Position numbers and translations under genes: made by a program
In this document: piece after piece, positions 8,906 through 27,430 of the stretch
Layout: each line of letters opens with the position of its first letter
Position numbering within the stretch: the first letter of the stretch is position 1
The notes under the pieces: model-generated
The model's input: only the letters and a program-made list of their open reading frames with translations
The model's database searches: none
What the model was told of the DNA's origin: nothing
NCBI GenBank assembly: GCA_050050615.1
Contig: JASFTV010000003.1
Span: forward strand, 1 to 34,199
Direction: 5' to 3'
From: Desulfobacteraceae bacterium
GTDB lineage: Bacteria > Desulfobacterota > DSM-4660 > Desulfatiglandales > HGW-15
DNA: 34,199 bases

Positions 8906-10324
8906 CTACCTTTGAGACTTTCTTGCGCTTGGAATACCCATATTTGAAACATTTGGACGTAATTTGCCTCTGACGAGTGATGCAAATATGCCTCCGAAGC
9001 AGAGAACAGAAAAGATGATAAACGCTGTTTTCAGGCTTTTCATAAAAACAGGATGGTACTCAACCGTAAGTTGGACCCTCCCGATGAATAGCGCAAACAC
9101 CAAGGTAGCGATGCCCATGCTGATCATCATGCCGAGGACACGCATTGTTGCTACGGTGCCTGAAGCGAGGCCGTAAAACCTCTTTTCAACGGAACTCATG
9201 ATGGCATTGGTATTGGGGGATGAGAAAAGGGCCAATCCAAAGCCGATGAAGATCAAGCTTGCGACGATGAATACCAGGGATGAGCCCGCTTTTAGAGAAG
9301 TGAAAATGAAGAGCCCAGCAGTGGTCAATGTCATGCCTGTGGAGGCCACAATTCTTGGCTCAATCCTGTCCGAAAGCCAGCCAGCAAAGGGCGAGCAAGC
9401 AGCCATGACAATAGGTTGCGAGACTAAAACGAGGCCGGCACTTTGGGGGCTGAGCCCTTTTATGTGCTGCAGATAGAGACTCAAGAGGAACGTGATGGCA
9501 AACGTTGCGCTGTAATTGATAAGTGCCGCGAGACTTGAAAATGCGAATACCCGGTTTGTTCTAAATAGACCTAGCTGGAAGACGGGATGCTCTACTCGTA
9601 TTTCCCATTTGATAAAGGCCAACAAAGCCAGAATTCCAAACAGGATAAGCCAGGTACTTCTTATTTCAGGGAGCAAAGAGATGCCATAAATGATTCCAAT
9701 GATGCCCATGCTATAGATGATAGAACCCGTCAAATCGAACTTCTCTCCCTTTGCCTCTGCCCACTCCTCTCTTAGTTTCCAAAGGAGAAGCGATATAATG
9801 ATCAGACCCAAAGGGACATTCACAAGAAAAACGCTTCTCCATGTGAAATGCTGGGTCAGAAGGCCACCGAGGAATGGTCCGAGGGAAAGCCCCACATACA
9901 CGGCAGCCACATTTATTCCTAGAACCTTGCCTCTGTCTTGGGGAGGAAAGACGGAGGTTAGAATCGCTATTCCAGTGGCGAAGATCATGGCGCTACCGAA
10001 GCCTTGAAAAACCCTGAAGCAAATAAGGGCTGGGGCTGAAAAGGCGATGGCGGAAAGGAAAGAGGAGACCGTGAAGATGATGATGCCGTAAGTAAAAATT
10101 CTTTTTCTTCCATGGATGTCCGCCAGCCTCCCAGAAGGGACAAGGGCGATACCCGCAGCCAAAAGATAGGAGGTCGCTACCCAAGTCAAAAGGAGGGCGT
10201 CAATGTTGAATTCCTTCTCAATGGAGGGGAGCGCAATGTTAATGGAAGAGCCCATAAAGGGGGTCATGAAAGAAGTCAAGGTGGCAATGATCAAAGCAGC
10301 CTTTTTTGTGCCCGCGTTATTCAC
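8906..10324 (-). CDS. MFS transporter, DHA2 (14-TMS drug:H+ antiporter) type
   Basis: Many hydrophobic segments; GRLADIHGRK motif A, RVFQGFG, GPFLGGLL..WRSVFLVNVPLG. GTG start with GGGAG RBS. Confidence 0.9.
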   Translation of the reverse strand: MNNAGTKKAALIIATLTSFMTPFMGSSINIALPSIEKEFNIDALLLTWVATSYLLAAGIALVPSGRLADIHGRKRIFTYGIIIFTVSSFLSAIAFSAPALICFRVFQGFGSAMIFATGIAILTSVFPPQDRGKVLGINVAAVYVGLSLGPFLGGLLTQHFTWRSVFLVNVPLGLIIISLLLWKLREEWAEAKGEKFDLTGSIIYSMGIIGIIYGISLLPEIRSTWLILFGILALLAFIKWEIRVEHPVFQLGLFRTNRVFAFSSLAALINYSATFAITFLLSLYLQHIKGLSPQSAGLVLVSQPIVMAACSPFAGWLSDRIEPRIVASTGMTLTTAGLFIFTSLKAGSSLVFIVASLIFIGFGLALFSSPNTNAIMSSVEKRFYGLASGTVATMRVLGMMISMGIATLVFALFIGRVQLTVEYHPVFMKSLKTAFIIFSVLCFGGIFASLVRGKLRPNVSNMGIPSARKSQR

Positions 10325-10344
10325 GAGAAACTCCCTTCATATAG

Positions 10345-10487
10345 TATTCTTGTCCAAAAACGGTTTCCTGGTTTCCCTGCCCAGGTGAGGAGGGGAATCT
10401 GAATTTTGGGCAGCACGGGGCATCGTGTAAAAACAGACATTTAAGTAGATGGAAAAGCCTATATTTGATTTATTTAGGACACCCGTG
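10345..10487. mobile_element. Degenerate MITE-like element of the same family as 29845-29968
   Basis: Shares ATTCTTGTCCAA, GAA.CTGAATTTTGGGC, TGTAAA.ACAG, AAGCCT and TTTGATTTAT..GGA..GTG, in the same order, with the 29845 copy. Confidence 0.6.
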
Positions 10488-10590
10488 ATCTTCTATATAC
10501 GCTTTCAGAAACTTTTTAAACCTCAATCCTCAGGGTAACCCAGGATGTCAGAGTGGGCAAAGCGGTCTGATTGACCCGTATCTATTAAGG

Positions 10591-10619
10591 TTGCCGTCTG
10601 TTTTCTTATTGTTTATACT
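10591..10619 (+). promoter_or_regulatory. Putative sigma70 promoter TTGCCG-N17-TATACT for the first kinase
   Basis: Near-consensus hexamers with 17-nt spacing, ending 46 nt upstream of ATG 10666. Confidence 0.5.
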
Positions 10620-10665
10620 TGAAAATCAGTAACAACGATCTTTTCTGAAAACGGCCCGGATAGCG

Positions 10666-12225
10666 ATGAAACAAAAAGATTGGAAGCTCCTATTTATAGA
10701 TGATGAAGAGGGGATCCGAAGCGTGATGTCTATCACTCTGGCGGATGCGGGTTATGATGTGATGACCGCCGCAGATGGGGAAAGTGGCATCCAGATGTGT
10801 CGGGAAAAGTCGCCCCAGATTGTGATTACGGACATTCGTATGCCCGGTGTGGACGGGATCGAGGTCCTTGAGAGGATTAAGAAAGAAGACCCGAACAAAG
10901 AAGTTATTGTGGTGACAGCGTATGGGGAAATGGAAGTGGCCATTCGCGCCTTGCAACTTGATGCTTCGGACTTCATCACAAAACCCATTAATAATGAGGC
11001 CCTGTTTGTGGCTCTTGAGCGAGCCAAGGAACGCTACACCACCCGCAAGGAGTTGCATGACTACACGGCCCTCATCGAAGAGAGGTGGATGGATACGGCT
11101 GAAGAGTTGGCCAGGACCTTCAATTTCCAAAACAATCTGATTGAGAGTTCCATCGACGGCATTGTGGGCTGTGACAAAGAAGGAAAGATCGTGACCTTCA
11201 ACATACGCTCAGAGCAGATGCTGGGCTACTTAAAGGATGAAGTGCGCGGAAAAGTCTCTTTTGAGAAACTGCTCCCTGTGGGAACAGCCGATAAAATCAA
11301 AGAAGACTTATATTCCGATGAATACGGCGGCAAGAATCAGCTCTTTCTTTATGAGACCCATCTCATTACCAAGAAGGGAGAGAAGATTCCAGTGCAGCTA
11401 TCAGCAACGGTCCTGTTTGAGGGGGGTCAAGAGAGCGGCATGGTGGGCTTCATCCGGGACTTGAGAGAGATCCGGAGGCTGGAGCAGCAATTTGCCGATC
11501 AGACCCGGCTGCTGCAACAGCACAAGATGATTTCATTAGGGAGATTGGCCGCCAGTGTTGTCCATGAAATCAACAATCCCCTTGCAGGCATCCTCAATTA
11601 TGTTCGGCTCATGATCAAGATTGTGGGTCGTGGCTCTGCTTTAGCCCCTGAAACCCTGAAAAAATTCCAAAGATATCTTGATCTCATTGAGAGCGAGACG
11701 AGCCGATGTTCCAGGATCGTCTCCAATCTGCTCGCCTTTTCGCGGCAATCCAAATTGGAATTCAGCGAGGTGAACATTAATGAGCTTTTGGAAAAATGCC
11801 TCATGCTCAGTCAACACAGGCTCAGCCTCCAAAATATTGCCATAAAAACAGAACTGAATCCGGGGATTCCCCATATTTCTGGGGACTTCAACCAGATCCA
11901 GCAATGCGTTATCAATCTTATCTTCAATGCCATTGATGCCATGCCCGATGGGGGCGCGCTGACCTTAAAGAGTTCTCTGAATGCAAACAAAGGTGTTTTG
12001 GAGATAAAGATCGGGGATAGCGGATCCGGCATTGCCAAGGAAGACCTCCCCCATATTTTCGATCCCTTCTACACCACGAAAACCGAAGGGAGTGGGTTGG
12101 GGTTAGGTTTATCAACGGTTTACGGCATCATAGATCGACACAAAGGCACCATCACGGTAGATAGCGAATTGGGGAAGGGCGCTGTCTTCACCATCAGACT
12201 CCCGATGGAAAAAAGAGTGTCTTGA
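10666..12225 (+). CDS. Cytoplasmic hybrid sensor kinase (REC-PAS-HisKA-HATPase)
   Basis: REC motifs IDDE, ITDIRMP, TAYG and ITKP; PAS; H-box HEINNPL; N-box NLIFNAIDA; DSGSG; FDPFYTTK; GLGLGL. No TM segment evident. Confidence 0.92.
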   Translation: MKQKDWKLLFIDDEEGIRSVMSITLADAGYDVMTAADGESGIQMCREKSPQIVITDIRMPGVDGIEVLERIKKEDPNKEVIVVTAYGEMEVAIRALQLDASDFITKPINNEALFVALERAKERYTTRKELHDYTALIEERWMDTAEELARTFNFQNNLIESSIDGIVGCDKEGKIVTFNIRSEQMLGYLKDEVRGKVSFEKLLPVGTADKIKEDLYSDEYGGKNQLFLYETHLITKKGEKIPVQLSATVLFEGGQESGMVGFIRDLREIRRLEQQFADQTRLLQQHKMISLGRLAASVVHEINNPLAGILNYVRLMIKIVGRGSALAPETLKKFQRYLDLIESETSRCSRIVSNLLAFSRQSKLEFSEVNINELLEKCLMLSQHRLSLQNIAIKTELNPGIPHISGDFNQIQQCVINLIFNAIDAMPDGGALTLKSSLNANKGVLEIKIGDSGSGIAKEDLPHIFDPFYTTKTEGSGLGLGLSTVYGIIDRHKGTITVDSELGKGAVFTIRLPMEKRVS

Positions 12226-12489
12226 AGCGCCTATGTCGGTCCCTGAACGTGTGTTGCCTGTCCTCTCCCTTCTGTTTAATTGCTTTACACGGCATGCCCT
12301 TTCGAATATACTCCTTTCCAAGGCACCGTGATCGCTTCATCTAATTTCAGTTACATGCTACTGCTCTTTTGTCCTTCCCTTCCGAAAGGTTCTGTGTGAG
12401 GGTGCAGGGGGAATGGTGGGTTGATGAAGGCAGCATAGGATAAGACCTCATTCCACCTCTGAAACCATGGCTAGAGGGCAAGGGGTATC

Positions 12490-13701
12490 ATGAATCCTTC
12501 GGTCAATTTCAAAACCCTATACGATGTCTACAGGCATATCAGTGCTGTGGTGCATTCCAGCACGAATTTGGAGGAGGTTTTGGAACTGGTGGTTTGGAAG
12601 GCCTCCGAGGTGTTCGGTAGCAAGGGCGCGGTTCTCCGTACCTTCAATGTGGAGACGCAAGAATTTGATCTGTTCGCTTCCCATGGATTGAGTGAGAAAT
12701 ACCTGACCAAGGCCCCGGTTTCTAGCAAAAAATTGGTCACCGATCTCTGCCATCTGAATAAGCCCCTCATCATCAGGGATAATCTTGCAGATCCCCGTGT
12801 CAGAAATAGGGAGGAGTTGAAGGAAGATGGGATTCGGATGGTTATGGATATTCCACTCTGCCTGAGGGAGAATATCATCGGGATCATTCGAATTTATTTC
12901 GACCACGAAAAGGAGTTTTCTGATGAAATGCTGGATTTTGCTGCGGCCATAGGCGAGCTGTTTTCATGTGCGATAGATAAGGCGAAAATGATCGAAGAGC
13001 AACGGTCCCGATATGACCAACTAGCCCTCCAAACGGAAAAGCTTTCGTCCCTAGGTCGAATGGCGGCAGGCATCGCTCATGAGATCAATAACCCTCTGAC
13101 CGGGATCCTGCTTTTCAGCTCAAGGATGCGCAAGAAAGTCACGGAAGGAGGGCACATACAAGAGGGTCTGGATGTCATCATTCGGGAGACCCAACGGTGC
13201 AAGAGCATTATTCAGGATCTTTTGGAATTTTCTAGGGATAAGGATCCTGAGAAAGTCAAGGCAAACATTAACGACGTCATTGAAAAGGCCCTCAGCATCC
13301 TGGAAAACGAGTTCCGGCTGCATCACATCTCCGTGGAGAAGAACTTTTCGAGCGGAATGCCTTCTGTGCTTCTAGATGTGAACTTGATGCAACAGGTATT
13401 TGTGAACCTCCTAATCAATGCGGTTGAAGCTATTCAGGACAAGGGGGTGGTCACTGTCCGGAGCTATCTTAAACCGGACCGAAGGAGCGTGGGCGTAGAG
13501 GTTGCGGACACCGGGCCTGGTATCTCGTCAGATAATATGGGCAAAGTCTTTGACCCCTTCTTCTCCACCAAGAACAATGGGACCGGCCTTGGTCTGGCCG
13601 TGAGTTACGGAATCATCCAGAAACACCAGGGGAATATCCAAGTGTCCAGTAAATTAGAGGAGGGGACACGCTTCACCATTGAGATTCCCATACTGCAATG
13701 A
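12490..13701 (+). CDS. Cytoplasmic GAF-domain sensor histidine kinase
   Basis: N-terminal GAF-like region; AHEINNPL, NLLINAVEA, DTGPG, FDPFFSTK and GTGLGL motifs. Confidence 0.9.
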   Translation: MNPSVNFKTLYDVYRHISAVVHSSTNLEEVLELVVWKASEVFGSKGAVLRTFNVETQEFDLFASHGLSEKYLTKAPVSSKKLVTDLCHLNKPLIIRDNLADPRVRNREELKEDGIRMVMDIPLCLRENIIGIIRIYFDHEKEFSDEMLDFAAAIGELFSCAIDKAKMIEEQRSRYDQLALQTEKLSSLGRMAAGIAHEINNPLTGILLFSSRMRKKVTEGGHIQEGLDVIIRETQRCKSIIQDLLEFSRDKDPEKVKANINDVIEKALSILENEFRLHHISVEKNFSSGMPSVLLDVNLMQQVFVNLLINAVEAIQDKGVVTVRSYLKPDRRSVGVEVADTGPGISSDNMGKVFDPFFSTKNNGTGLGLAVSYGIIQKHQGNIQVSSKLEEGTRFTIEIPILQ

Positions 13702-13712
13702 ATTAACGAATC

Positions 13713-15134
13713 ATGAGCACTGAATCTGCCAAGATCTTGATTATTGATGATGAACAAATCATCTGCGATGGATGCCGTCTTGCGCTGGCAGACCAGGGGC
13801 ATGCCGTGGAATATTGCAAAGCAGGGAGGGCGGGTCTTGAGACAATTCGCGAAGGTGCATACGATTTGGTTCTGCTGGACATGAAGCTTCCTGATATGGA
13901 TGGGATGGAGATCCTGAAGACTGTACGCGAGGAAAAACCCGGCGTGTACATTATGGTCATGACCGGCTATTCCACGGTTCAGAACGCCGTGGAGGCCATG
14001 AAGCTGGGTGCCATCGATTATCTTGCTAAACCTTTCTCGGACGATCAACTGGTGCTCGCCGTGGAAAGGGTTGTGGAGAAAAAACGGCTGGTGGAAGAGA
14101 ACCTTTTCCTCCGAAAAGAGCTCCTTGATCGGTTTAGCTTTAGCAACATCGTGGGAGAGAACTCCAAGATCCTCGCAATATTCGATCAGATTGATAAGGT
14201 CGCCCCTACGGACAGCACAGTGCTCATCTATGGAGAGAGTGGAACGGGAAAGGAGCTATTCGCGAGGACTATTCATGCCCATAGCCAGCGGGCTGCCAGG
14301 CAATTCGTGGCGGTTGACTGCAGTACGCTTTCTCCAAGTCTTCTGGAAAGTGAGTTGTTCGGGCACGTGAAGGGGGCCTTCACTGGAGCGAGCCAAAACA
14401 AGGCAGGGATCTTTGAGGTGGCCCACGATGGAACGCTCTTTCTGGACGATGTGGCGAACCTGACTGGGGAGATCCAGGGAAAGCTCCTACGTGTTCTGGA
14501 AGGACACGATTACAAGCCGGTAGGGGCAAGTCAGTTTAAGAAGACGAACGTCCGGGTCATTGCTGCCACGAATAGGGATCTAAAGGTCATGGCGGACGAA
14601 GGGATTTTCAGGGAAGATCTCTTCTACCGATTGAACGTTTTCCCCATTATCCTCCCACCCCTAAGGGAGAGGAGAGACGACATTCCTAAACTCGCCTACC
14701 ACTTCCTGAGGCATTTCTGCAGGGAGACCGGGAAAAGGATTGAAGGATTCTCTGATGATGCCTTGGAGATGTTGGTGAACCATGAATGGCCAGGCAATGT
14801 GCGTCAACTGAAAAATGTGGTTGAACGCCTGGTCATCATGGCTGATCGCGGTATCCTGGATAGTCTTGATCTGCTGGAACCGCCACAAATGAAACGTTTT
14901 TTGAGGGAAGATTCAATCCCAGAGACTCTGGAAGAACTCAAGGCTGTTAAGAGACAACTCTTGGAAGAAAGTTACAGCCGGATGGAAAAAGCCTTTCTTC
15001 TCAAAGCCCTCAAGGCCTGTAACGGGAACATCACCCATGCAGCTGAGAGGGTCGGTATGCGGAGATCCAACTTCTCGACTTTGATGAAAAAGCATCACCT
15101 TTCAGGTAAACCCGCAAAGGGCGAAAACGAATAG
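13713..15134 (+). CDS. Sigma54-dependent response regulator (NtrC family: REC-AAA+-Fis HTH)
   Basis: REC LLDMKLP; GESGTGKE; GAFTGA; FREDLFYRL; WPGNVRQL; HTH GNITHAAERVG. Lies 11 nt after the GAF kinase. Confidence 0.93.
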   Translation: MSTESAKILIIDDEQIICDGCRLALADQGHAVEYCKAGRAGLETIREGAYDLVLLDMKLPDMDGMEILKTVREEKPGVYIMVMTGYSTVQNAVEAMKLGAIDYLAKPFSDDQLVLAVERVVEKKRLVEENLFLRKELLDRFSFSNIVGENSKILAIFDQIDKVAPTDSTVLIYGESGTGKELFARTIHAHSQRAARQFVAVDCSTLSPSLLESELFGHVKGAFTGASQNKAGIFEVAHDGTLFLDDVANLTGEIQGKLLRVLEGHDYKPVGASQFKKTNVRVIAATNRDLKVMADEGIFREDLFYRLNVFPIILPPLRERRDDIPKLAYHFLRHFCRETGKRIEGFSDDALEMLVNHEWPGNVRQLKNVVERLVIMADRGILDSLDLLEPPQMKRFLREDSIPETLEELKAVKRQLLEESYSRMEKAFLLKALKACNGNITHAAERVGMRRSNFSTLMKKHHLSGKPAKGENE

Positions 15135-15306
15135 CGCGCTCCCCACATAGACGCCCCTCATTAAAAGTCTCGGAAATTGTATAACTTTCTGAAATTAAAA
15201 GTAATTTTTGAGGCCCGACGTTTTTGCCCCGCATATGGAATGATGGCATATTGGAATTTTGATTTTAACTAACTTCTGAATAGTGGGGCCAAACGATGAG
15301 AGGCGT

Positions 15307-15393
15307 CGTATAATCGCCTATACGGCCCTAACCCACTAAGATCACTTCAGAGTTTATATTTCAACACGCTTTTGACGTATAAGTTCTTATACG
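15307..15393. promoter_or_regulatory. Pair of palindromic upstream activator sites CGTATA-N6-TATACG (15307-15324 and 15376-15393)
   Basis: CGTATAatcgccTATACG and CGTATAagttctTATACG lie about 110-195 bp upstream of a sigma54 promoter. Confidence 0.7.
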
Positions 15394-15501
15394 CTATGGC
15401 CCACCAATCACCGGTCCTCTCTCCCCTTTCATGCGCTTAACTCGCTAATATAACTAATAAAAATATCCGATCACCCTTGTGTCTCATAGATGCATCAAAC
15501 T

Positions 15502-15517
15502 TGGAACAGAACTTGCT
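15502..15517 (+). promoter_or_regulatory. Sigma54 -24/-12 promoter (TGGAACAGAACTTGCT) for the REC-REC-HdrA gene
   Basis: GG-N10-GC with TTGC, about 78 nt upstream of the probable start. Confidence 0.75.
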
Positions 15518-15594
15518 CACATCATATTTGAGATGAGAATAGATGAGAGGGGCTATCCAATGGAACTCAACCTTTTTGAAAAGGAGGAATGACC

Positions 15595-18500
15595 GTGAAT
15601 CAGGTCGCTGAAAGCATGAGAGACGACTACGCCGGGCAGCCCCAAATTCTTCTGATGGAGGATGAGTCCAGTGTGGCGCAGGGGCTTCAAATGATCCTGA
15701 GAGAAGAGGGTTATGGCGTGGATTTGGCTATGACGGGGCAGGGTGCTCTGGATACCTTGAGCCATAAAGATGTTGATCTCTTGGTAGCCGATCTCCGGTT
15801 GCCCGACATGGACGGCATGGAAGTGATTAGACACGTAAAGAAGAAGCAGCCCAAGACCGAGGTCATTGTCATTACGGGCTACTCAAATGTCTTATCAGCA
15901 GTGGAAGCCATGAAGACAGGCGTCTCCGACTACTTACCCAAACCGTTCACGGAGGAGGAATTCATGGCAAAAGTCCAGCGGGCGCTTAGAGAGAGAGAAG
16001 AAGCCCTTTCCAGAGAGAAGCTTGGGTTCGTGGAAAAAGGGGCGGAAATGGAGCAGGTGGCGGAAACCACGAAGGATGATTCCGCCTCTCAGCCCCAAAT
16101 CCTACTGATGGAGGATGAGTCCAGTGTGGCGCAGGGGCTCCAAATGATTCTCAAAGAAGAAGGTTATGGCGTGGATTTGACCATGACCGGAAAGAGTGCT
16201 CTGGATACCTTGAGCCATAAAGATGTTGATCTCTTGGTGGCCGATCTCCGGTTGCCCGACATGGATGGTATGGATGTGATTAGACACGTAAAGAAGAAGC
16301 AACCCAAGACCGAGGTTATTGTCATTACGGGCTACTCAAATGTCTTATCAGCCACGGATGCCATGAGAGCGGGCGTTTCCGACTATCTGCCCAAACCCTT
16401 CACTGAAGAGGAGTTCATGGCAGCGGTTGGGAGGACCTTGAAGGAGAGACAGGAAACTCTCTCCAAGGAGATCCGTGAATCCGTTGAGGCTGAAACTGGT
16501 GAGCTCGTCAAAATAGGGTTCTATATCTGCCATGGCGGGACCCATATTGCAAATAAGGTCTGGGTGGAGGATGTGATTGCCTTTGCCCGGAAGCAGCCGA
16601 ATGTGTTGCTGGCTAGAGATTATGATTACCTGTGCCAGGCTCCGGGCCTGGAGATGATTAAGAAAGACATCAGGGAGCTTGGCGTGAATCGAGTCGTCGT
16701 TGCAGCATGCAGCCCGAAACCCTACGGAAAGACCTTTAAGGAGGCCTGCCAGCAAGCAGGCCTCAAAGCTCAGCATTTCCAGATGACCCCTGTGCGCGAA
16801 CAGGTTGCATGGATCACCGAGGACCCCGCTGAAGCAACCAGGAAGGCAAAAACGCTGGCCGCAGCGGCTATCCACCGGGTGAAATACCATCGAACCCTTA
16901 CTGGCCGGGAGGTGAATGTACATCCTGATGTCCTGGTTGTCGGTGGCGGCATCGGGGGCATGCAGGCAGCCTTGGACATAGCCGAAGCCGGGCACAAGGC
17001 CTACCTCGTGGAAAGGCAGTCAACCATTGGCGGCCATATGCTTCAGTTTGATAAGACCTTCCCCACCCTGGATTGTGCGGCCTGTATTGGAACCCCGAAG
17101 ATGGTCTCGGTTGGGCAAAACCCAAATATCGAGCTTCTCACCTGTAGCGAAGTGAAGGAAATATCCGGCTTTATTGGCAACTATAAGGTGAAAATCCATC
17201 GTAGACCGAGGTACGTAAAAGAGGGCATCTGTACAGGCTGCGGTGAATGCGCCAGCGTCTGTCCTGTTACAAGACCAAACGAATGGGATGAAGGCCTTTC
17301 CGAAAGAAAGGCGATATACAGGTCCTTTCCCCAGGTCGTACCCATAACCTTTGCCATCGAAAAGAAGGACCGGGCCCCCTGCGTGGCCACTTGTCCCGCA
17401 GGTGCAAACGTCCAGGGTTATGTCCAACTCATAGGACAGGGTAAATATAAGCAGGCAGTCCAGCTGATTATGGAACGCGTGCCGTTGCCCGGAGTGCTCG
17501 GTCGGGTCTGCCCGCATCCTTGTGAAGCTGAATGCCGAAGAATTGAGGTGGATGAAGTTCTGTCCATCAGGGATTTAAAGCGTTTTGCTGCCGACCAGGT
17601 GAACCTGAGGGAACTCCCCCATCCGAGGATCGAGGAGCGCCCCGAAAAGGTTGCCGTGATTGGCTCCGGCCCTGCCGGCCTCACGGTGGCTTATTATCTT
17701 CGGCTTAAAGGTTATCAGGTGACCATCTTTGAGGCATTGCCTGTACTGGGAGGTATGCTCAGGGTGGGCATCCCCGATTATCGGCTCCCCCCGGAGGTAT
17801 TAGACCAGGAGATCGATTACATTCTCGGTCTGGGTGTTGAGGTGCGAAGGGGCGCAAGTCTGGGCCCTGATTATACGTTCGTCGACCTTAAGGAACAGGG
17901 TTTCGAGGTCATATTTCTTGGTATCGGATCTCACCGTGGCATGAAGTTAAACATTCCGGGAGAGGAGGATTTTGAAGGGGTTCTGGATGCCGTGGATTTC
18001 CTGAGAGCGGTGAATCTGGGAAACCGGGAAATGCCCGGAAGGCGTGTGGTCATCATCGGAGGCGGCAATGTGGCCATTGATGCAGCTCGAACAGCGCTTC
18101 GACTTGGTTCTGAAAAGGTGAGTATTGTATACCGCCGAACCCGGAAGGAAATGCCAGCTTATGAGGAAGAAGTCGAGGAAGCCCTGGCAGAGGGCGTCAA
18201 GATCCATTATCTAACAGCACCTGTGCGCATCCATGGTTCCGACGGAAAGTGCACCGGACTGGAATGCATCAAAACCGAGTTGGGAGAACGGGATGCTACC
18301 GGGCGTAGTCGACCAGTGCCTGTAGAGGGCTCCGAATTTGTCATGGACCTTGACGGGGTCATACCAGCCATCGGGCAGCAGCCTGATCTAGATGGGGTTG
18401 AGCATGAACCATCTCCTAAAACAACCCGTTGGGGCACTTTAGTTGTGAAACCCCATACGATGCAGACTTCCATCCCCTATGTGTTTGCTGGGGGTGATGC

Positions 18501-19911
18501 GGTCACAGGGCCGGCAACGGTTATTGAAGCTATTTCTTCAGGCCATAGGGCCGTGGAGGCGATTCACCGCTTCATAAATGGAGAGGATCTTAAGCGCTTC
18601 GCTGAAGAGCTGGCTGCCCATGAACCCCCTGGTCAGGATTGGCAGGAAATCCCGCCGGGCATAGCACGCGAGCCCCGAGCCAGGGTTGCCCTAAGAGATG
18701 CCAGCGAGAGAGCCCGCTGCTTTGACGAAGTGAATCTGGGTCTTTCGGAAGAAGCGGCGAAGCGGGAGGCTCAGCGCTGCCTAAGCTGCGGGATCTGCTG
18801 CGAGTGTATGGCGTGTGTGCGAACTTGTGAGGCAAACGCCATAGACCACAGCATGAAAGAAGAAGAATTGGAAGTGGAGGTTGGGAGCATCATAGTAGCA
18901 ACAGGATACGATCTTTGGGATCCCACTCCCATGAAGCAGTTTGGTTACGGGAAATACCCCAATGTTTTTACGAGCCTTGAGTTCGAACGTCTCAATAACG
19001 CCACAGGGCCCACCAATGGCCACATTCTGTTGAGGGACGGAAATGGGAATTTTACTAAGCCACCGGAGAGTGTGGCTATTATCCATTGTGTCGGGAGCCG
19101 GGATGAGAACTATTATGAGTACTGCTCCCGAGTCTGTTGTATGTATGCCCTGAAGTATGGCCATCTCCTTAAGGACAAAGTGGGGCACCATGCGAAAGTG
19201 TATGACTTTTACATTGACATGCGCTGCTTCGGGAAAGGTTATGAGGAATTCTACCGCAGGTGCCAAGAAGAGGGGATCATTTTTTTCAGGGGTAAACCTT
19301 CTGAAATCACAGACCAAGCCCTCAGCCCAGAAGAGGAGGGCAAGCTCATCGTTATCGGCGAAGATACCCTTCTGAACAGGCCCTGCCGAATCCCTGTTGA
19401 TATGGTGATCCTGTGTGCCGCCATAGAGGCCCGTAAGGACACCGCCGAAGTGGCAAGGATCTTCGATATCCATCGGGGAGCCGATGGGTTCTTCTTAGAG
19501 GAGCACCCTAAGTTGGCGCCACTAAGTACTGCGACACGCGGAATTTTCTTGGCTGGGACCTGCCAAGGACCCAAAGACATTCCAGACACGGTCGCACAGG
19601 CCTCGGGTGCTGCTGCACAAGCCCTCGAGCTGGCCATCCGGGGAAAGATCGAAATTCCATCCACCATGGCTTGGATAGATCCAGATGTGTGTGAAGGCTG
19701 CGGGAACTGTATCAAGCAGTGCGCTTACTCGGCCATTTGGTTTGATATACGAAAAGGAGTATCGGTGGTGAATCAGGCCATTTGTAAGGGATGCGGAGTT
19801 TGTGTTAGCCATTGCCCGAGCAGTGCTGCCCATATGTGGCAATTCAGCGAAAACCAAATTCTCACAGAGTTCGACGGCATTATGGAGGGGCTGCGAGCGG
19901 TGGCGGTGTAA
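15595..19911 (+). CDS. hdrA: Tandem receiver domains fused to an HdrA/HdrL-type FAD/Fe-S oxidoreductase with an inserted NfnB/GltD-like NAD(P)H module
   Basis: Two REC domains (MEDE, ADLRLPD, ITGY, PKPF). HdrA motifs VVVAACSP, GGGIGG, DKTFPTLDCAAC, LEFERL, HCVGSRD, YCSRVCCMYALK and GTCQGPKDIPD, plus C-terminal 2x[4Fe-4S]. Insert: APCVATCPA..LGRVCPHPCE, GSGPAG, GGGNVA..YRR. GTG 15595 fits the AAGGAGG spacing (ORF track starts at 15589). Confidence 0.9.
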   Translation: MNQVAESMRDDYAGQPQILLMEDESSVAQGLQMILREEGYGVDLAMTGQGALDTLSHKDVDLLVADLRLPDMDGMEVIRHVKKKQPKTEVIVITGYSNVLSAVEAMKTGVSDYLPKPFTEEEFMAKVQRALREREEALSREKLGFVEKGAEMEQVAETTKDDSASQPQILLMEDESSVAQGLQMILKEEGYGVDLTMTGKSALDTLSHKDVDLLVADLRLPDMDGMDVIRHVKKKQPKTEVIVITGYSNVLSATDAMRAGVSDYLPKPFTEEEFMAAVGRTLKERQETLSKEIRESVEAETGELVKIGFYICHGGTHIANKVWVEDVIAFARKQPNVLLARDYDYLCQAPGLEMIKKDIRELGVNRVVVAACSPKPYGKTFKEACQQAGLKAQHFQMTPVREQVAWITEDPAEATRKAKTLAAAAIHRVKYHRTLTGREVNVHPDVLVVGGGIGGMQAALDIAEAGHKAYLVERQSTIGGHMLQFDKTFPTLDCAACIGTPKMVSVGQNPNIELLTCSEVKEISGFIGNYKVKIHRRPRYVKEGICTGCGECASVCPVTRPNEWDEGLSERKAIYRSFPQVVPITFAIEKKDRAPCVATCPAGANVQGYVQLIGQGKYKQAVQLIMERVPLPGVLGRVCPHPCEAECRRIEVDEVLSIRDLKRFAADQVNLRELPHPRIEERPEKVAVIGSGPAGLTVAYYLRLKGYQVTIFEALPVLGGMLRVGIPDYRLPPEVLDQEIDYILGLGVEVRRGASLGPDYTFVDLKEQGFEVIFLGIGSHRGMKLNIPGEEDFEGVLDAVDFLRAVNLGNREMPGRRVVIIGGGNVAIDAARTALRLGSEKVSIVYRRTRKEMPAYEEEVEEALAEGVKIHYLTAPVRIHGSDGKCTGLECIKTELGERDATGRSRPVPVEGSEFVMDLDGVIPAIGQQPDLDGVEHEPSPKTTRWGTLVVKPHTMQTSIPYVFAGGDAVTGPATVIEAISSGHRAVEAIHRFINGEDLKRFAEELAAHEPPGQDWQEIPPGIAREPRARVALRDASERARCFDEVNLGLSEEAAKREAQRCLSCGICCECMACVRTCEANAIDHSMKEEELEVEVGSIIVATGYDLWDPTPMKQFGYGKYPNVFTSLEFERLNNATGPTNGHILLRDGNGNFTKPPESVAIIHCVGSRDENYYEYCSRVCCMYALKYGHLLKDKVGHHAKVYDFYIDMRCFGKGYEEFYRRCQEEGIIFFRGKPSEITDQALSPEEEGKLIVIGEDTLLNRPCRIPVDMVILCAAIEARKDTAEVARIFDIHRGADGFFLEEHPKLAPLSTATRGIFLAGTCQGPKDIPDTVAQASGAAAQALELAIRGKIEIPSTMAWIDPDVCEGCGNCIKQCAYSAIWFDIRKGVSVVNQAICKGCGVCVSHCPSSAAHMWQFSENQILTEFDGIMEGLRAVAV

Positions 19912-19994
19912 AAGACAAGACAGCCTTCAGAAAAGGCATCATCACTTTTGGGTCGAGTAGAAAATGTTCTCCTTAGCAAGAAGGAGGTATGGTC

Positions 19995-21722
19995 ATGAAT
20001 CAGGTGGCTGAAACCATAAGAGATGATTCCGCCGGGCAGGCTCGAATCCTTCTGATAGAGGATGAGTCGAGTGTGGCACAGGGGCTTCAAATGATCCTCA
20101 GAGAAGAGGGTTATGGCGTGGATTTGGCCAGGACGGGACAGAGTGCTCTGGATACCTTGAGCCATAAAGATTTTGACCTCCTGGTGGCCGATCTCCGATT
20201 GCCTGACATGGATGGCATGGAGGTGATTAAGCATGTAAAGGATGAGAGTCCGGATACCGAGGTTATCGTCATCACAGGATATGCAAACGTCCCATCAGCA
20301 GTGGAAGCCATGAAGACAGGCGCCTCCGGGTACTTGCCCAAACCGTTCGCGGACGACGTGTTCAAGGCAGCGGTGGAGGAGGCCCTGAAAGAGAAGAAGC
20401 GGGTGCCCACCGGGAACCACTTTAAGCCAGTGCAGCGTGAGGAAAAAAAGCTCATACAGAAGAGGGAAGTGATGCGAGTCCTGAAAAGAGCTTCCGATTT
20501 CATCACCAAGCCTTTTGATGATAAACCCATCATCGTCGGTCTTGATCGGGCCAGAGAGAATTACACGACCATGATGGAAGGGAGGGCAACGGACACATCC
20601 GAGGAGCTGGCAAAAACCATCCACTTCAGAAATAATCTGATTGAAAGCTCAATTGACGGCATTCTAGGGTGCGATAAAGATGGGAAAATCATCACTATCA
20701 ATAGAAGCCTGCAGAAGAACTTAGGTTATTCTCGGAACGAAGTATGCGAGAAAATGTCGTTCGATCAACTTCTTGAGATGGGGGGAGCAGAGAAGTTCAG
20801 AGAGAAACTGTATAGTGAAGAATGCGGAGGGAGAAACCGACTATTCCTCTTTGAGACAAACCTTGTTGACAAAACAGGAAAGAAAGTCCCGGTCCAGGTC
20901 TCGGCAACGGTCATGTTTGAGGAGGATATAGAGATAGGCATTGTGGCTTTCTTCAGGGACCTGAGAGAGCTCAGAAGACTGGAACGACAAATGACAGATC
21001 AAACCTCGCTCCTTCATCAGGACAAAATGATGTCCCTGGGCAGACTGGCCGCCAGCGTTGTCCATGAAATTAATAACCCTCTTACGGGCATCCTGAATTA
21101 TCTTCGACTTATGAGTAAGATCATGAATCGGGATGCCCTGAACCCGGAACATATACGTAAATTTCAAAGGTATTTGGATGTTGCCGAGAGCGAAACAGAC
21201 CGCTGCTCAGGGATCGTTTCCAATCTGCTCGCTTTCTCACGGAAATCCAAAATGGAATTTGGTGAGATGAGTGTCAATGAATTGCTGAAACGGTGCATTA
21301 TGCTCAGCCAGCACAAACTCACCTTGCAGAATATTCAGATCAAGACCGAACTGCAACCTGAGATTCCGCTCGTATGGGGAGACTTCAACCAGATCCAGCA
21401 ATGTGTGATCAATCTCATCTTTAACGCCATCGATGCCATGCCCGAAGGAGGTACGCTGAGCATTGGAAGTGCCTTGGATTCAAAAAAAAGGCTGGCAGAA
21501 ATAACGATCCGGGATACGGGATGTGGCATTCCCAAAGAGGATCTGCCCAATATCTTCGAGCCATTTTTCACCACCAAAGTGGAGGGAAAGGGACTCGGCC
21601 TCGGCCTATCCACCGTGTACGGCATCGTGAACCGGCACAAGGGAACGATGGCCGTGGAAAGTGAGGTAGGGCAGGGCACCACCTTCCACATCAAACTCCC
21701 TATCAGAAAGCCTGAAGGATGA
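19995..21722 (+). CDS. Cytoplasmic hybrid sensor kinase (REC-PAS-HisKA-HATPase), paralog of 10666-12225
   Basis: REC domain nearly identical to those of the HdrA fusion; PAS and kinase closely match the 10666 gene (NNLIESSIDGI, HEINNPL, GDFNQIQQCVINLIFNAIDAMP). ATG 19995 fits the RBS (ORF track starts at 19989). Confidence 0.92.
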   Translation: MNQVAETIRDDSAGQARILLIEDESSVAQGLQMILREEGYGVDLARTGQSALDTLSHKDFDLLVADLRLPDMDGMEVIKHVKDESPDTEVIVITGYANVPSAVEAMKTGASGYLPKPFADDVFKAAVEEALKEKKRVPTGNHFKPVQREEKKLIQKREVMRVLKRASDFITKPFDDKPIIVGLDRARENYTTMMEGRATDTSEELAKTIHFRNNLIESSIDGILGCDKDGKIITINRSLQKNLGYSRNEVCEKMSFDQLLEMGGAEKFREKLYSEECGGRNRLFLFETNLVDKTGKKVPVQVSATVMFEEDIEIGIVAFFRDLRELRRLERQMTDQTSLLHQDKMMSLGRLAASVVHEINNPLTGILNYLRLMSKIMNRDALNPEHIRKFQRYLDVAESETDRCSGIVSNLLAFSRKSKMEFGEMSVNELLKRCIMLSQHKLTLQNIQIKTELQPEIPLVWGDFNQIQQCVINLIFNAIDAMPEGGTLSIGSALDSKKRLAEITIRDTGCGIPKEDLPNIFEPFFTTKVEGKGLGLGLSTVYGIVNRHKGTMAVESEVGQGTTFHIKLPIRKPEG

Positions 21723-21961: not shown

Positions 21962-21977
21962 TGGCATCCTCGTTGCT
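21962..21977 (+). promoter_or_regulatory. Sigma54 -24/-12 promoter (TGGCATCCTCGTTGCT)
   Basis: Near-consensus TGGCA-N6-TTGC (GG-N10-GC) upstream of the Cys-motif/GcvH-like genes. Confidence 0.78.
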
Positions 21978-22306: not shown

Positions 22307-23251
22307 ATGAAGGACAGAAAAGCAGCCAAAGAAAGAGGCAAGAAGAAGGAAAGGGTTCAGGGTTTCCAGGTCCTTGAACAGGAATGTATCTGGATGAAGG
22401 CGGGGGTCGTCAACTTCCGTCTCTGTGACAACGCCTATGATTGTTACAATTGTCCATTTGATCGCGGGATGAGAAAAGCGATGAATTTGGAACCGCAATC
22501 TGAGACCGGAGAGAGCCAGCCGGCATGGGTGGCGCATTTGAAGAGGAACTATCATGGCGCCTCTCGTCAGTGCCGCCATGCTTTGACGGGTCGCGTCAAT
22601 GCACCTAAGATATGTACCATGAACTACGAGTGCTACCATTGCCCTTACGATCAAATGCTGGATGAACTGGATATTGCCCGCCCTGCAGAGGCTCCCAGTT
22701 ACCAACTCGCCTCAGGGTATCGAATGGCTCAAGGCTATTATTATCATATGGGGCACAGCTGGGCTCGTTTTGAGCATGGTGGGCGTGTCAGGGTAGGATT
22801 TGATGATTTCCTCGTCAAGGTTTTTGGTGCCCCCAAAACCCTTACCCTTCCATTCCTGGGATCTCATTTGGTGCAAAACCAGGTGGGATGGTCATTCGCC
22901 CGGGATGATCACCGAGCCGCTGTTTTATCGCCCGTGTCAGGAACCGTCCTCGCTGTGAACCACAAGGCCCAAGACCACCCTGAAATCAGCCGGGAGGATC
23001 CTTATAGGGAAGGGTGGTTATTCATCTTGGAACCGAAGATGCCGAAGAGGGATCTTAAAGGACTCTATTTTGGGGATGACAGCTTTCAATGGATGGAGCA
23101 CGAAACCAAAGAACTGATGTCGCTTATGGGACCGGAATATGAACAATTGGCAGCCACAGGGGGTACACCGGTCAGCGACCTCTTCGGTCAGTTCCCGGTT
23201 GTCGGATGGGATAGCCTGGTGCGCACATTTCTCCGCACTGAAAAGATGTGA
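22307..23251 (+). CDS. GcvH (H-protein)-like protein lacking the lipoyl lysine, with two N-terminal 4-Cys repeats
   Basis: YYHMGHSWAR, VRVGFDDF, LSPVSGTVLAVN and DPYREGWL motifs. The ESVK motif is replaced by ARDDH. AAGGAG RBS. Confidence 0.85.
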   Translation: MKDRKAAKERGKKKERVQGFQVLEQECIWMKAGVVNFRLCDNAYDCYNCPFDRGMRKAMNLEPQSETGESQPAWVAHLKRNYHGASRQCRHALTGRVNAPKICTMNYECYHCPYDQMLDELDIARPAEAPSYQLASGYRMAQGYYYHMGHSWARFEHGGRVRVGFDDFLVKVFGAPKTLTLPFLGSHLVQNQVGWSFARDDHRAAVLSPVSGTVLAVNHKAQDHPEISREDPYREGWLFILEPKMPKRDLKGLYFGDDSFQWMEHETKELMSLMGPEYEQLAATGGTPVSDLFGQFPVVGWDSLVRTFLRTEKM

Positions 23252-23407: not shown

Positions 23408-23998
23408 TCACACCTCCTTTGACTCTTCAGTGCTTGTGTCACGAGGTCTGCTGAGGGTGAGGGCATCCCTCAGATAGACCGAGCAATACCTGCAGAAGTA
23501 GAGGGGCGTCCTATCTAAGTCTTCAATCTCCCCCGAAAAGCGCATAAGACACCTCTCATCCGTACAGTGGTGAAGATTGTACAGATGGCCCAGTTCATGG
23601 AGAGCGACCTTGGCTGCTCTCTCGATTTGAAGAGATGTGGCTGAACTGGGAACCTCAGAGCGGGTCTGTAGCCTGTGTAGAGAGACCAATGCAAATTTCC
23701 CTCCTTGCGTTGCCTCGCCAAAAACGTGGGTGAAGATTGGCACATATAGATCGACATCAAGGAGGCCAATCACCTTGTCGTAGTCATGAAAGGGCATGGA
23801 TTCAAAGGCATTAAGTATAGCACCCGCGTCATACTGAACCCGCCTTTCGTCGTAGGCATAGGTGGGATGGTCTAAGGGCGGGTGGATATCTGCGTCCAAG
23901 TTTAGATAACCGAGAATATGGGCCGCAATGGATTTTAGTGTGATTTCGGAAACTTTCCCAATGGGGACGATGCAGATAGGTCTCTGTTTTGAGCTCAT
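23408..23998 (-). CDS. amzA: Archaemetzincin-family Zn metalloprotease
   Basis: HELGHLYNLHHC-x4-CLM...FCRYC (HExxHxxxxxH plus Cys4 site); also RVQYDA, VDLY and VFGEA. Confidence 0.85.
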   Translation of the reverse strand: MSSKQRPICIVPIGKVSEITLKSIAAHILGYLNLDADIHPPLDHPTYAYDERRVQYDAGAILNAFESMPFHDYDKVIGLLDVDLYVPIFTHVFGEATQGGKFALVSLHRLQTRSEVPSSATSLQIERAAKVALHELGHLYNLHHCTDERCLMRFSGEIEDLDRTPLYFCRYCSVYLRDALTLSRPRDTSTEESKEV

Positions 23999-24023: not shown

Positions 24024-25382
24024 TCAAGGTCTTGTCAAGTTGTGCCGTTTGATCATTTTGTGTAGGCTCACTCGATTAATATCCAGGATCTTGGAGGCCT
24101 TGGTCACATTCCAGTCGCAATCTACCAAAATCTGATGGATATAATCCTTTTCCATTTCACGCAGCGATCGCGGCTTTAGGCTCGGCATTGAAGAAGGGCG
24201 CAAAAAGGAGAAATCGCCGAGCCGGAGCGTCCTGGATTTGGATAGGACGACCGCTCTCTCAACAGCATTCTCTAATTCTCTCACGTTTCCAGGCCAGTCA
24301 TATTCTTCCAAAAGCCGCATGGCATCTCGGCTGACATGATCAACCCGTTTCGTCGTTTGATGGCTATATTTTTGAAGGAAATGCTGAACAAGGAGTGAAA
24401 TGTCCTCCTTCCTTTTTCTCAAAGGAGGAACGGGGATCGTAATCACGTTGATTCGATAGAAAAGGTCTTCTCGGAAAGTCCCCTTTGAGACCTCCTGCTC
24501 CAAGTCTTTTCTGGTGGCGGATATCAATCGAAAATCCACGTCGACAGGGAGTCTATCTCCGAGCTTGATGATTTTCTTTTCTTCCAGTACACGTAAAAGA
24601 TCGACCTGCATTTTCCGGCTGATCTCTCCTATTTCATCAAGGAAAAGGGTGCCGCCGGAGACGACTTCAAAGAATCCTTTGCGGGGGTGGTCTGCACCGG
24701 TAAAGGCTCCCTTCTGATGGCCGAAGAGCTCACTCTCCAGGAGGGTATCCGGAAGGGCACCACAGTTGATGGCGATAAATGGCAGGTGGGAGCGTTTGCT
24801 TTTGGCATGGATCGCTTTGGCTACCAGTTCTTTTCCAGTGCCTGTTTCCCCAACAATGAGAATGGAAGAATCGCTTTGTGCAACCTCTGGGATGAGATCG
24901 AAGACCTCCTGCATGGGTCGCGATTGGCCTATGATGTTATCGAAACGAGTGACTTCCTCCAACCGCCCTTTCATGTATTGATACTCGAAAGCCAACCTCT
25001 TTTGAGTGGCAACCTTTTCCAGAACAAGGGAAAGTTGGTCGGGTTTGAAGGGTTTGAGCAGATAGTCCACAGCCCCCATTTTCATTGCCTCCACGGCGGT
25101 CTCAATAGAACCGTAGGCCGTGATAATGATGACGATGGTGTCGGGGTATTCCTCCTTTACTTTTCCCAAAAGCTCAATGCCGTTCATGCCAGGCATCTTG
25201 ATGTCTATGAAGAGGAGATCAAAAGGGACCTTTTCAAGTTTTTCAAGAGCCTGAAAGCCTGAGGCTGCTGTTTCGACCTTGTGTCCGTATTTTTGAAACC
25301 AATGAAGAAAGGATTGCCGGACTATCCTTTCATCATCCACGACCATAATGCTCATCTTTTGATCCATGGCGGTTCTTCCCAT
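24024..25382 (-). CDS. Sigma54-dependent response regulator (NtrC/AtoC family)
   Basis: VDDE, IDIKMP, GETGTGKE, GAFTGA, LFLDEIG, WPGNVRELEN and HTH WNVTKASKIL. The start may be 25367. Confidence 0.93.
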   Translation of the reverse strand: MGRTAMDQKMSIMVVDDERIVRQSFLHWFQKYGHKVETAASGFQALEKLEKVPFDLLFIDIKMPGMNGIELLGKVKEEYPDTIVIIITAYGSIETAVEAMKMGAVDYLLKPFKPDQLSLVLEKVATQKRLAFEYQYMKGRLEEVTRFDNIIGQSRPMQEVFDLIPEVAQSDSSILIVGETGTGKELVAKAIHAKSKRSHLPFIAINCGALPDTLLESELFGHQKGAFTGADHPRKGFFEVVSGGTLFLDEIGEISRKMQVDLLRVLEEKKIIKLGDRLPVDVDFRLISATRKDLEQEVSKGTFREDLFYRINVITIPVPPLRKRKEDISLLVQHFLQKYSHQTTKRVDHVSRDAMRLLEEYDWPGNVRELENAVERAVVLSKSRTLRLGDFSFLRPSSMPSLKPRSLREMEKDYIHQILVDCDWNVTKASKILDINRVSLHKMIKRHNLTRP

Positions 25383-25395
25383 GCCTCCCTGGAAG

Positions 25396-26931: not shown

Positions 26932-27126
26932 GCTCCCATCCTTTCTCCTCCGGGCTGTCAAATCCCGAAAAGACCTTCATAATGCTCGGCCAACCTTGGC
27001 TTTCAGTCCCTGCGATCGATGGGTTTCATGGTTCAAGCAAAGGAGGTGTAAGTGCAGGCCAATAGAAATACCCGAAACAAGAGCCCCATTTCAGGAATGA
27101 GGCTCCCTTCTTCTCATGCGCGTCTG

Positions 27127-27195
27127 AATGACCAATCCCGACGGGCCCCCGCTGCGATTGAAGGTTGTCAAGTTAGTTGCGATACAGAATACTGG
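27127..27195 (+). repeat. Truncated copy of the 23267-23362 element (right half)
   Basis: GCTGCGATTGAAGGTTGTCAAGTTAGTTGCGATACAGAATACTGG versus GCTGCGATAGAAGGTTGTCAAGTTATTTACGACACACAACACTAG. Confidence 0.65.
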
Positions 27196-27384: not shown

Positions 27385-27430
27385 GATCTTGAGCTATGAA
27401 GACAGCTAATTGGTGGTAAAACATGGATCC

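Follow-up and report, generated by a model that had tools for sequence, protein, structure and literature searches.

Why would a soluble redox enzyme with many cofactors carry two phospho-receiver domains at its N-terminus? This question is raised by an open reading frame (ORF) in a 34,199-nt stretch of DNA from a Desulfobacteraceae bacterium (assembly GCA_050050615.1, contig JASFTV010000003.1, positions 1-34,199 of the forward strand), which we call the window. The ORF (15589..19911, + strand) encodes a protein of 1440 amino acids with, in order, two receiver (REC) domains, a HdrA-type flavoprotein that is split by an NfnB/GltD-like NAD(P)H module, and a C-terminal ferredoxin domain. We call this protein REC-REC-HdrL. 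We propose that it probably works as a soluble HdrA-type oxidoreductase that is linked to NAD(P)H and controlled by a two-component system, which would act on its transcription and then also by phosphorylation of the protein. The parts are known, and their combination is undescribed and conserved, with a specific and testable mechanism.

The frame is open over all 1440 codons, with zero internal stops on translation. A previous interpretation by a model that saw only the DNA and its ORFs (the sequence-only reading) had described a single uninterrupted ORF with these domains, and the ORF list, the translation, Pfam, and a sequence search of the PDB all bear this out. That reading had also placed the start at 15595. 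GGAGG at 15583-15587 is separated by 7 nt from an in-frame GTG (15595) that follows it but by just 1 nt from the ATG (15589), and because of this Shine-Dalgarno spacing, the GTG is at least as likely to be the start as the ATG.

Pfam's Response_reg family (PF00072) matches two stretches of the protein (190.8 bits, with a gathering score of 30.2), and the best match covers residues 20-129. Receiver 1 is at 15637..15993 (residues 17-135) and receiver 2 is at 16090..16446 (residues 168-286); these and all of the other domains are on the + strand. Next is HdrA's N-terminal (MvhD-like) domain at 16510..16887, which was identified from the alignment to the methanogen HdrA 8rvu_a, a table of cysteines, and an AlphaFold2 (AF2) model, and which has CHGG instead of CHCG. 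The first part of the FAD-binding region of HdrA (16906..17370) includes GGGIGG, the LDCAAC pair (C496/C499), and an inserted ferredoxin motif; Pfam's FAD_oxidored match begins at residue 447, the start of the FAD Rossmann fold, and the Fer4 motif is at residues 541-560. The sequence-only reading gave about 17370-18790 for the NAD(P)H module, and the PDB matches put it at about 17371-18777, with Fer4_20 (residues 595-672) and Pyr_redox_2 (residues 687-985) lying between the two HdrA stretches according to both Pfam and the PDB search. The second part of HdrA (18778..19653) has LEFERL and CSRVCCMY, with the adjacent-cysteine cluster site, and the C-terminal ferredoxin domain (19669..19827) is a Fer4 dicluster with 2x[4Fe-4S] at residues 1361-1413. 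The motifs quoted in the sequence-only reading are present in the translation: MEDES, VADLRLPD, ITGY, and PKPF in both receivers, and LEFERL and CCMYALK in the HdrA part.

These assignments agree with the closest structures. Methanogen HdrA 8rvu_a matches two stretches of the protein, 301-592 and 1069-1431 (E = 3.2e-198), and 5odc_A, which is also HdrA, is matched as well (E = 1.2e-182). NfnB matches residues 596-999 (4ylf_B, E = 5.1e-91), and 5jca_L is a further match of this type (E = 6.4e-90). The homology to HdrA thus covers the N-domain, the FAD domain, the inserted ferredoxin, and the C-terminal ferredoxin, and the insert has the two-cluster Fer4_20 and the FAD and NAD(P)H Rossmann folds of NfnB/GltD. 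An HdrA scaffold and a GltD/NfnB-like NAD(P)H module in one polypeptide is the mark of HdrL. As judged from these matches, REC-REC-HdrL belongs both to the receiver family and to the HdrL architecture. In line with the NAD(P)H module, the protein scores 558.7 bits against NCBIfam NF009410 (cut-off 516). It scores 721 bits against the NCBIfam model HdrA2, which is under that model's cut-off of 1100 because the HdrA match is split, and the sole NCBIfam name that it receives is that of a generic "NAD(P)-binding protein" model.

Are the receivers likely to be phosphorylated? Receiver 1 has the acidic pair E24-D25, the phospho-acceptor D68, T96, and K118, and receiver 2 has D176, D219, T247, and K269. 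We aligned 39 receivers: 38 from 19 fused proteins, plus the receiver of the kinase that is encoded just downstream (19989..21722). The pocket Asp (D25), the phospho-acceptor Asp (D68), the Thr (T96), and the Lys-Pro-Phe (K118-P-F) are invariant in all 39, and both receivers look functional. Their closest matches in the PDB are NtrC1 receivers (4l4u, 1ny5, and 1zy2). Tandem receivers elsewhere can include unphosphorylated adaptor copies, and the receivers of REC-REC-HdrL might likewise be phosphorylation-independent modules that serve only for dimerisation or docking. However, the residues for phospho-chemistry are kept in every sequence even though the two receivers of a protein have diverged to 50-89% identity, and kinase genes are syntenic with the receivers, which makes a pure scaffold unlikely.

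The two receivers of the window protein are 89% identical at the DNA level. With the downstream kinase's receiver included, the three copies (15596-15895, 16049-16348, and 19996-20295) are 84-89% identical in DNA, and the kinase's receiver is 75-80% identical to the HdrL receivers at the protein level. In the relatives, the two receivers of a protein are 50-78% identical, so the window's value is the highest. This suggests recent local gene conversion among the HdrL receivers and the kinase receiver.

To judge the enzyme core, we aligned it across 120 proteins: the 19 fused proteins, including the window's, and 101 HdrL proteins that lack receivers (REC-less HdrL). With the exception of residue 316, at least 16 of the 19 fused proteins have the cysteine in each column for Fe-S clusters or FAD, and nearly all of these columns are invariant, matching the 101 REC-less proteins. 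The cysteine columns of the NfnB-like module (598, 602, 641, 645, and 649) are invariant. In the window protein, all of the cysteines of the HdrA motifs are present besides residue 316; the passages on the shuttle cluster in PMC13580544 omit that cluster's ligands. Because the Fe-S and FAD cysteines are kept as in REC-less HdrL, the enzyme core looks functional, and from the homology to HdrA, we infer that it may carry out electron bifurcation.

Similar repeats can mislead an assembler, so we considered whether the fusion is an assembly artefact (a chimera of three near-identical receiver copies) or a decaying pseudogene. The DNA identity of the three copies would allow this, the de Bruijn contigs of sequencing run X1 break inside the receiver repeat, and in one relative, at a locus that we call L011/L096, the REC-REC and HdrL parts are in different frames (a 299-amino-acid ORF and a 1148-amino-acid ORF that overlap by about 50 nt at about 10807-10861). 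That split is either genuine or a frameshift error in a metagenome-assembled genome (MAG). However, the open frame argues against decay, and contigs from run X1 (possibly the source sample) contain 0.94 of the sampled words and tile 15300-20100 without listed indels. One X1 record (record 4, 15870-16134) bridges the two receivers, and another (record 7, 16323-17064) bridges receiver 2 and HdrA, so these public contigs provide the continuity across the junction that the sequence-only reading had named as a check. Contigs from two metatranscriptome libraries also cover both receivers, the junction (16372-16522), the core, and the DNA that separates hdrL from the downstream kinase gene. An apparent joint from 20096 to 16150 proved to be an artefact: the reference ended inside the kinase's receiver, and the remainder of the contig was placed on the similar receiver 2.

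The same architecture is also found in other proteins, as the sequence-only reading had suggested checking. Our homologue set was the best 120 matches in a collection of 5.8 billion proteins, as representatives of clusters at 90% identity; one of these is the window's own gene call. Of the other 119, 18 independent representatives carry receivers (16 with two, one with three, and one with one receiver). They are 58-77% identical to the window protein and 1317-1597 amino acids long. The other 101 of the best 120 are REC-less HdrL of about 1136 amino acids, and REC-less relatives are 67-75% identical in the core. The names that the relatives carry in their sources are "response regulator", "NAD(P)-binding protein", and "heterodisulfide reductase subunit A". 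One "REC-less" match (P0049) comes from the L011/L096 contig with the split frames. The architecture recurs in independent assemblies and the window's receivers are so alike in DNA, so this is more than chance, and we consider an artefact or a pseudogene to be very unlikely indeed.

The fusion appears to be a conserved, lineage-restricted variant of HdrL. In a tree that was rooted on the genome's own REC-less HdrL, which replaces a misleading midpoint-rooted tree, 17 of the 19 fused sequences and P0049 form one clade (support 1.0; supports along the backbone are low, at 0.4-0.8). The other two fused sequences lie outside this clade, P0010 among the REC-less proteins and P0090 at the base. At the level of the order, 5 of 209 genomes have a match (counting this genome, G000), and all are from one family. 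In a sample of the phylum, with four candidates scored per genome, 0 of 400 other genomes matched this query at E <= 1e-60. Clustering at 50% identity leaves about four representatives that span the junction of receiver and HdrA (P0246-P0248 and P0250); another that seemed similar, P0336, is an unrelated REC-REC-PAS-GAF-GGDEF-EAL protein. When genome contigs were scanned with the window protein, 79 loci were found, and the REC-REC-HdrA junction was present only in L010 and L011; the remainder were receiver-only matches.

Which signalling proteins might act on these receivers? As the sequence-only reading had claimed, four kinases flank REC-REC-HdrL on both sides (10666-12225, 12490-13701, 19989-21722, and 25396-26961), which Pfam confirms. 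All of the genes of the cassette are on the + strand and were classified with Pfam. The gene order is a REC-PAS-HisKA-HATPase kinase (10666..12225, 519 amino acids); a GAF-HisKA-HATPase sensor kinase (12490..13701, 403 amino acids), which is the first gene of the conserved cassette; an NtrC-type sigma-54 activator with REC, AAA+, and HTH_8 domains (13713..15134, 473 amino acids); REC-REC-HdrL; and another REC-PAS-HisKA-HATPase kinase (19989..21722). L011/L096 repeats this entire order, including a divergent MFS gene, and its counterpart of the first kinase is 68% identical and in the same position. L010 and L090 repeat the order from the GAF-kinase or the activator onward. The position of the downstream kinase is kept in L010 and L011.

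The pair of GAF-kinase and activator is conserved more widely. Orthologues of the GAF-kinase (50-71% identity) are directly upstream of the NtrC-type gene in L010, L011, L095, and L097. In our metagenome scan, which is a sample and in which synteny covers the first 26 of 80 loci among the matches listed, 15 of the 26 loci have the GAF-kinase and the activator directly upstream of a REC or REC-REC gene. Orthologues of the activator (62-81% identity, with one outlier at 43%) are directly upstream of the REC or REC-REC gene in most loci. On the other side, the downstream kinase is probably co-transcribed with hdrL: no terminator-like site was found on the + strand of the 77-nt gap between them, and a contig from an RNA library spans this gap (19670-19991).

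The activator has plausible targets just upstream of the REC-REC-HdrL gene. A sigma-54 type -24/-12 element, TGGAACAGAACTTGCT (TGGAAC-N5-TTGCT), is at 15502..15517 on the + strand, 72 nt before the ATG at 15589. Further upstream, a motif search found two candidate activator-binding sites of the CGTATA-N6-TATACG type, 69 nt apart and also on the + strand: site 1 at 15307..15324, and site 2 at 15376..15393, which is a perfect 8+8 palindrome, CGTATAAG-TT-CTTATACG. The window contains 2 matches to CGTATA-N6-TATACG and 0.05 are expected by chance. Across the window, sigma-54-like matches are not above chance (4, with 2.1 expected), so the case for the promoter rests on its position and on its conservation across loci. 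No sigma-70-like promoter was found preceding the REC-REC-HdrL gene.

We compared 22 intergenic regions that lie between an activator gene and a REC gene (14 regions and the remaining 8 usable ones). A TGG-N9-TGC(A/T) element has a single match in 16 of the 22 regions, mostly as TGGAAC-N5-TTGCT and usually 54-146 nt short of the end of the region (409 nt in L100). In shuffled controls, which were made for the 14 regions, 1.1-7.9% of shuffles matched. CGTATA-N6-TATACG, with at most one mismatch and a spacer that is always 6 nt, is present in 19 of the 22 regions, often as a pair 68-71 nt apart. The element, its spacing, the upstream sites, and their conservation across loci are, by sequence, those of a sigma-54/enhancer-binding regulon. 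Because of the conserved synteny, the conserved -24/-12 element, and the paired palindromes, the prediction that the adjacent GAF-kinase and NtrC-type activator control the transcription of hdrL via a sigma-54 promoter is well supported.

Receivers and HdrA-type proteins also meet in other ways. Contig C43 of the same genome encodes a REC-less HdrL that is 63% identical to the window's HdrL and has mvhD directly downstream, then an FrhB/FdhB-like gene and a double HdrA. At the start of this REC-less HdrL, overlapping it by 4 nt, is a gene for a receiver of 137 amino acids (P0245, L009:8592-9005, - strand), which is a "split" counterpart of the fusion. The double HdrA (P0125; L009 = C43:1-2949, - strand) has a canonical receiver after its inserted-ferredoxin domain, at the very point that the NAD(P)H module occupies in HdrL. 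The best 120 homologues of P0125 all carry PF00072; they are 73-89% identical to it and mostly about 1142 amino acids long, and many of them share contigs with matches to REC-less HdrL. The genes for HdrL, MvhD, the FrhB-like protein, and the receiver-bearing double HdrA thus look like an operon that is common.

In the genomes G143 and G175 and in several metagenome loci, a separate REC-REC protein (382-384 amino acids) is encoded beside a selenocysteine double HdrA, in which selenocysteine (U) takes the place of the second Cys of the LDCxxC pair. These stand-alone proteins (for example L095:3148-4302, which is P0122; L099:7956-9104; and P0249) have an extra C-terminal domain of about 85 amino acids that matches no Pfam family, and their genes always come after the GAF-kinase and NtrC-type genes and before the selenocysteine double HdrA. 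In L099, a ferredoxin-like protein and then a molybdopterin oxidoreductase are encoded after the double HdrA. P0246 (1217 amino acids) has three receivers fused to an HdrA-type protein that is without the NfnB-like insert. In L010 (positions 10022-16021 of that locus, from the Desulfobacterales MAG contig JAUWXF010000001.1), REC-REC-HdrA is split into an N-terminal part of 579 amino acids and a C-terminal part that is fused behind a NuoG-N-like Fer2/Fer4 region (616 amino acids), and genes for NuoE-like (195 amino acids) and NuoF-like (617 amino acids) proteins lie between the two halves. An NADH module of the NuoEFG-like type has apparently taken the place of the NfnB-like one, and this argues for selection on catalysis. 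Besides the fusion, then, receivers join HdrA-type proteins in at least four further arrangements: inserted, as a triple REC, as a separate REC-REC gene, and as a small coupled REC gene. This repeated association (a Rosetta-stone pattern) is an argument that these receivers are functionally linked to HdrA-type redox modules, irrespective of which module brings in the electrons.

How might phosphorylation affect the enzyme? Canonical receivers are phosphorylated on a conserved Asp and act on the domains to which they are attached, often via dimerisation. In PleD (REC-REC-GGDEF), CheB, and the NtrC1/DctD-type proteins, the receivers are N-terminal and phosphorylation acts via dimerisation or relief of inhibition. 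REC-REC-HdrL resembles these proteins in that its receivers precede a catalytic or assembling domain, to which they are predicted to be linked by an extended alpha5 helix. It differs in its output: a redox enzyme with several cofactors takes the place of a signalling enzyme or an AAA+ ATPase. In the AF2 monomer model of residues 1-445, there are three folded domains, and alpha5 of each receiver extends as a long helix (residues 122-147 and 273-301) into the following domain. According to the passages of PMC13580544 that describe methanogen Hdr complexes, the N-terminal (MvhD-like) domain of HdrA is part of a "mobile arm", and as the arm moves, the shuttle cluster HA3 comes close to the bifurcating FAD and to the outgoing clusters in turn. 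Because the receivers join this domain through a long alpha5 helix (273-301), phosphorylation could plausibly alter the freedom of the arm or the assembly of dimers.

We propose that the adjacent GAF-kinase and NtrC-type activator would activate the sigma-54 promoter before the REC-REC-HdrL gene; that one of the neighbouring kinases would phosphorylate D68 and D219; and that this would change the quaternary state or the freedom of the N-terminal arm and would thereby switch the flow of electrons between NAD(P)H, flavin, and low-potential carriers on or off. The enzyme would then take its input from the receivers, as other receiver-enzyme fusions do. We lean slightly towards this account, in which phosphorylation alters arm freedom or dimer assembly to switch electron flow and the same signal induces the gene via the NtrC-type activator. 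We suggest more tentatively that phosphorylation of the receivers locks, releases, or dimerises the mobile arm of HdrA or, in the reverse direction, that the redox state of the enzyme tunes phosphoryl flow. The structural claims of the sequence-only reading have stood; the phosphorylation and its effect on the enzyme, which that reading also proposed, are what we infer.

Several observations weigh against phosphorylation-gated catalysis. The second Cys of the N-domain's CHCG (residue 316, 16534-16536) is Gly in 14 of the 19 fused proteins, the window protein among them; this residue is Cys in 99 of the 101 REC-less proteins and in 5 of the 19 fused proteins, and the methanogen HdrA in the alignment also has CHCG. 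At residue 921 (18349-18351), the window protein is alone in having Leu; all 101 REC-less proteins and 17 of the 19 fused ones have Cys. The lost Cys316 and the Leu921 could mean that catalysis is altered or relaxed. The AF2 model (pTM 0.35) gave no confident arrangement of the domains relative to each other, and no contacts were read from it. (A homodimer prediction with two copies of residues 1-445 had a score of 0.00 and bears neither way.) MvhD (PF02662, FlpD) has no match on the contig (C3), with 6 matches elsewhere in the genome, and Pfam finds no HdrB/HdrC, DsrC, MvhD, or other acceptor among the window's ORFs of at least 150 amino acids. The contigs from RNA libraries show that the locus is present in those libraries, which is not proof of transcription. 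Finally, the four kinases and three further receivers within 16 kb fit a signalling role equally well.

This last point leads to the main rival, in which the HdrL body is a redox sensor for NAD(P)H/ferredoxin or through its flavin and Fe-S clusters. Its state would set how readily the receivers gain, hold, or lose phosphoryl groups. Acting as a phosphate sink or relay station tuned by redox state, the protein would send feedback to the NtrC-type activator and the REC-PAS kinases. The dense signalling context (the four kinases and two NtrC-type activators) fits this, as does the downstream kinase's receiver, a near copy of the HdrL receivers. A sensor would also fit with the lack of partner-subunit genes (mvhD, hdrBC, or dsrC) found in the locus, with the loss in most fused proteins of a Cys that is nearly universal in REC-less HdrL, and with induction of the gene by the same system that the protein could titrate. 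On the other hand, conservation of the cofactor sites and of the NAD(P)H module is as strict as in REC-less enzymes, and an NAD(P)H module is retained even where it was swapped for a NuoEF-like one. Furthermore, REC-REC proteins at sister loci adjoin catalytic complexes with a molybdopterin (FdhA-like) subunit, and a multi-cofactor enzyme of 1136 amino acids would be a costly sensor. This evidence is weak, as a sensor would keep its cofactors too. We consider a sensor to be somewhat unlikely, and we prefer a catalytic enzyme that is gated by its receivers.

How does REC-REC-HdrL compare to characterized relatives? In the relevant passages of PMC2702500 (Strittmatter et al. 2009), HdrL from Desulfobacterium autotrophicum HRM2 is described as a large soluble HdrA paralogue with a module like the glutamate synthase small subunit or NfnB, and in passages of PMC2702500 and PMC5947623, the role proposed for HdrL is to connect NAD(P)H with the reduction of sulfite/DsrC or with confurcation. 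As described there, HdrL from D. autotrophicum HRM2 and from Syntrophobacter fumaroxidans (Sfum_0824) have the same layout of HdrA and NAD(P)H module as the window protein, but they are followed by mvhD and the window protein has two N-terminal receivers and CHGG, with no mvhD on its contig. The next downstream gene is instead the REC-PAS kinase, and because no such partner genes were found in the locus, REC-REC-HdrL should not be classified among the subunits of canonical HdrABC/Mvh complexes. Methanogen HdrA proteins (from Mvh/Fdh/Elp-Hdr; PDB 8RVU, 5ODC, 7BKB, and 9SW2-9SW6) share the LDCxxC pair and the adjacent-Cys (CC) motif with the window protein, which differs in adding the NAD(P)H insert and the receivers and in having no HdrBC or Mvh genes nearby; bifurcation by it is presumed.

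The HdrL passages of PMC2702500, PMC5947623, PMC5109826, and PMC4046663 do not mention a receiver domain; the domain figures (PMC2702500 Fig. S3) are outside the scope of this statement. In our full-text literature searches, which did not extend to supplementary files, no account of a fusion between a receiver and HdrA or HdrL came up, in agreement with the sequence-only reading, which knew of no characterised example. The nearest precedent that we found is in Desulfovibrio vulgaris, where, according to passages of PMC3333781, the response regulator DVU2394 controls transcription of the adh/hdr-flx operon. This resembles the window's locus in that a two-component system controls transcription of hdr-like genes in a sulfate reducer. 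The control by DVU2394, as described there, is transcriptional only, whereas the window's enzyme itself also carries receivers. The cassette, the sigma-54 promoter, the activator sites, the recurrent REC-HdrA architectures, and the placement of receivers on the mobile-arm domain go beyond the sequence-only reading.

We also note some other genes in the window. A GcvH-like gene (22307-23251, + strand) encodes a protein of 314 amino acids that is without the lipoyl-lysine (the sequence reads ..ARDDHRAAVLSPVSG..) and that has two cysteine-rich repeats with a C-x2-CP motif at its N-terminus. It is preceded by its own sigma-54-like element, TGGCATCCTCGTTGC, at 21962-21976. We considered this gene as a conserved partner of REC-REC-HdrL and rejected it: among the fetched loci, tblastn detects it in L150, L013, and L016 alone, and no fused HdrL is present in any of these three. 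An M54 archaemetzincin-like peptidase is encoded at 23408-23998. The region at 24024-33077 (- strand) has a second pair of PAS-kinase and NtrC-type activator, then two ParA/NUBPL-like P-loop proteins with ferredoxin motifs; it also holds two proteins with Nitro_FeMo-Co (NifX/NifB-C-like) domains.

HdrA-type flavoproteins are central to how methanogens, sulfate reducers, and syntrophs conserve energy, and their control has so far been described as acting on gene expression and through conformational gating inside the complex. A conserved family with phospho-receivers on the domain that moves during catalysis is a concrete and testable handle on how these enzymes are controlled. If our proposal is true, this would be the first case of two-component gating of a flavin-based electron-bifurcating-type enzyme after translation. 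If the reversed reading is true, the cell would get a direct read-out of the balance of NAD(P)H and low-potential carriers. Other HdrA-type proteins have a receiver within them, next to them, or in three copies, and for this reason the energy metabolism of Desulfobacterota could have a general layer of control that has been overlooked. The wider pattern, with a receiver in a double HdrA that is very common, stand-alone REC-REC proteins, and the exchange of an NfnB-like module for a NuoEF-like one, suggests that two-component signalling reaches HdrA-type redox machines far more often than annotations reveal.

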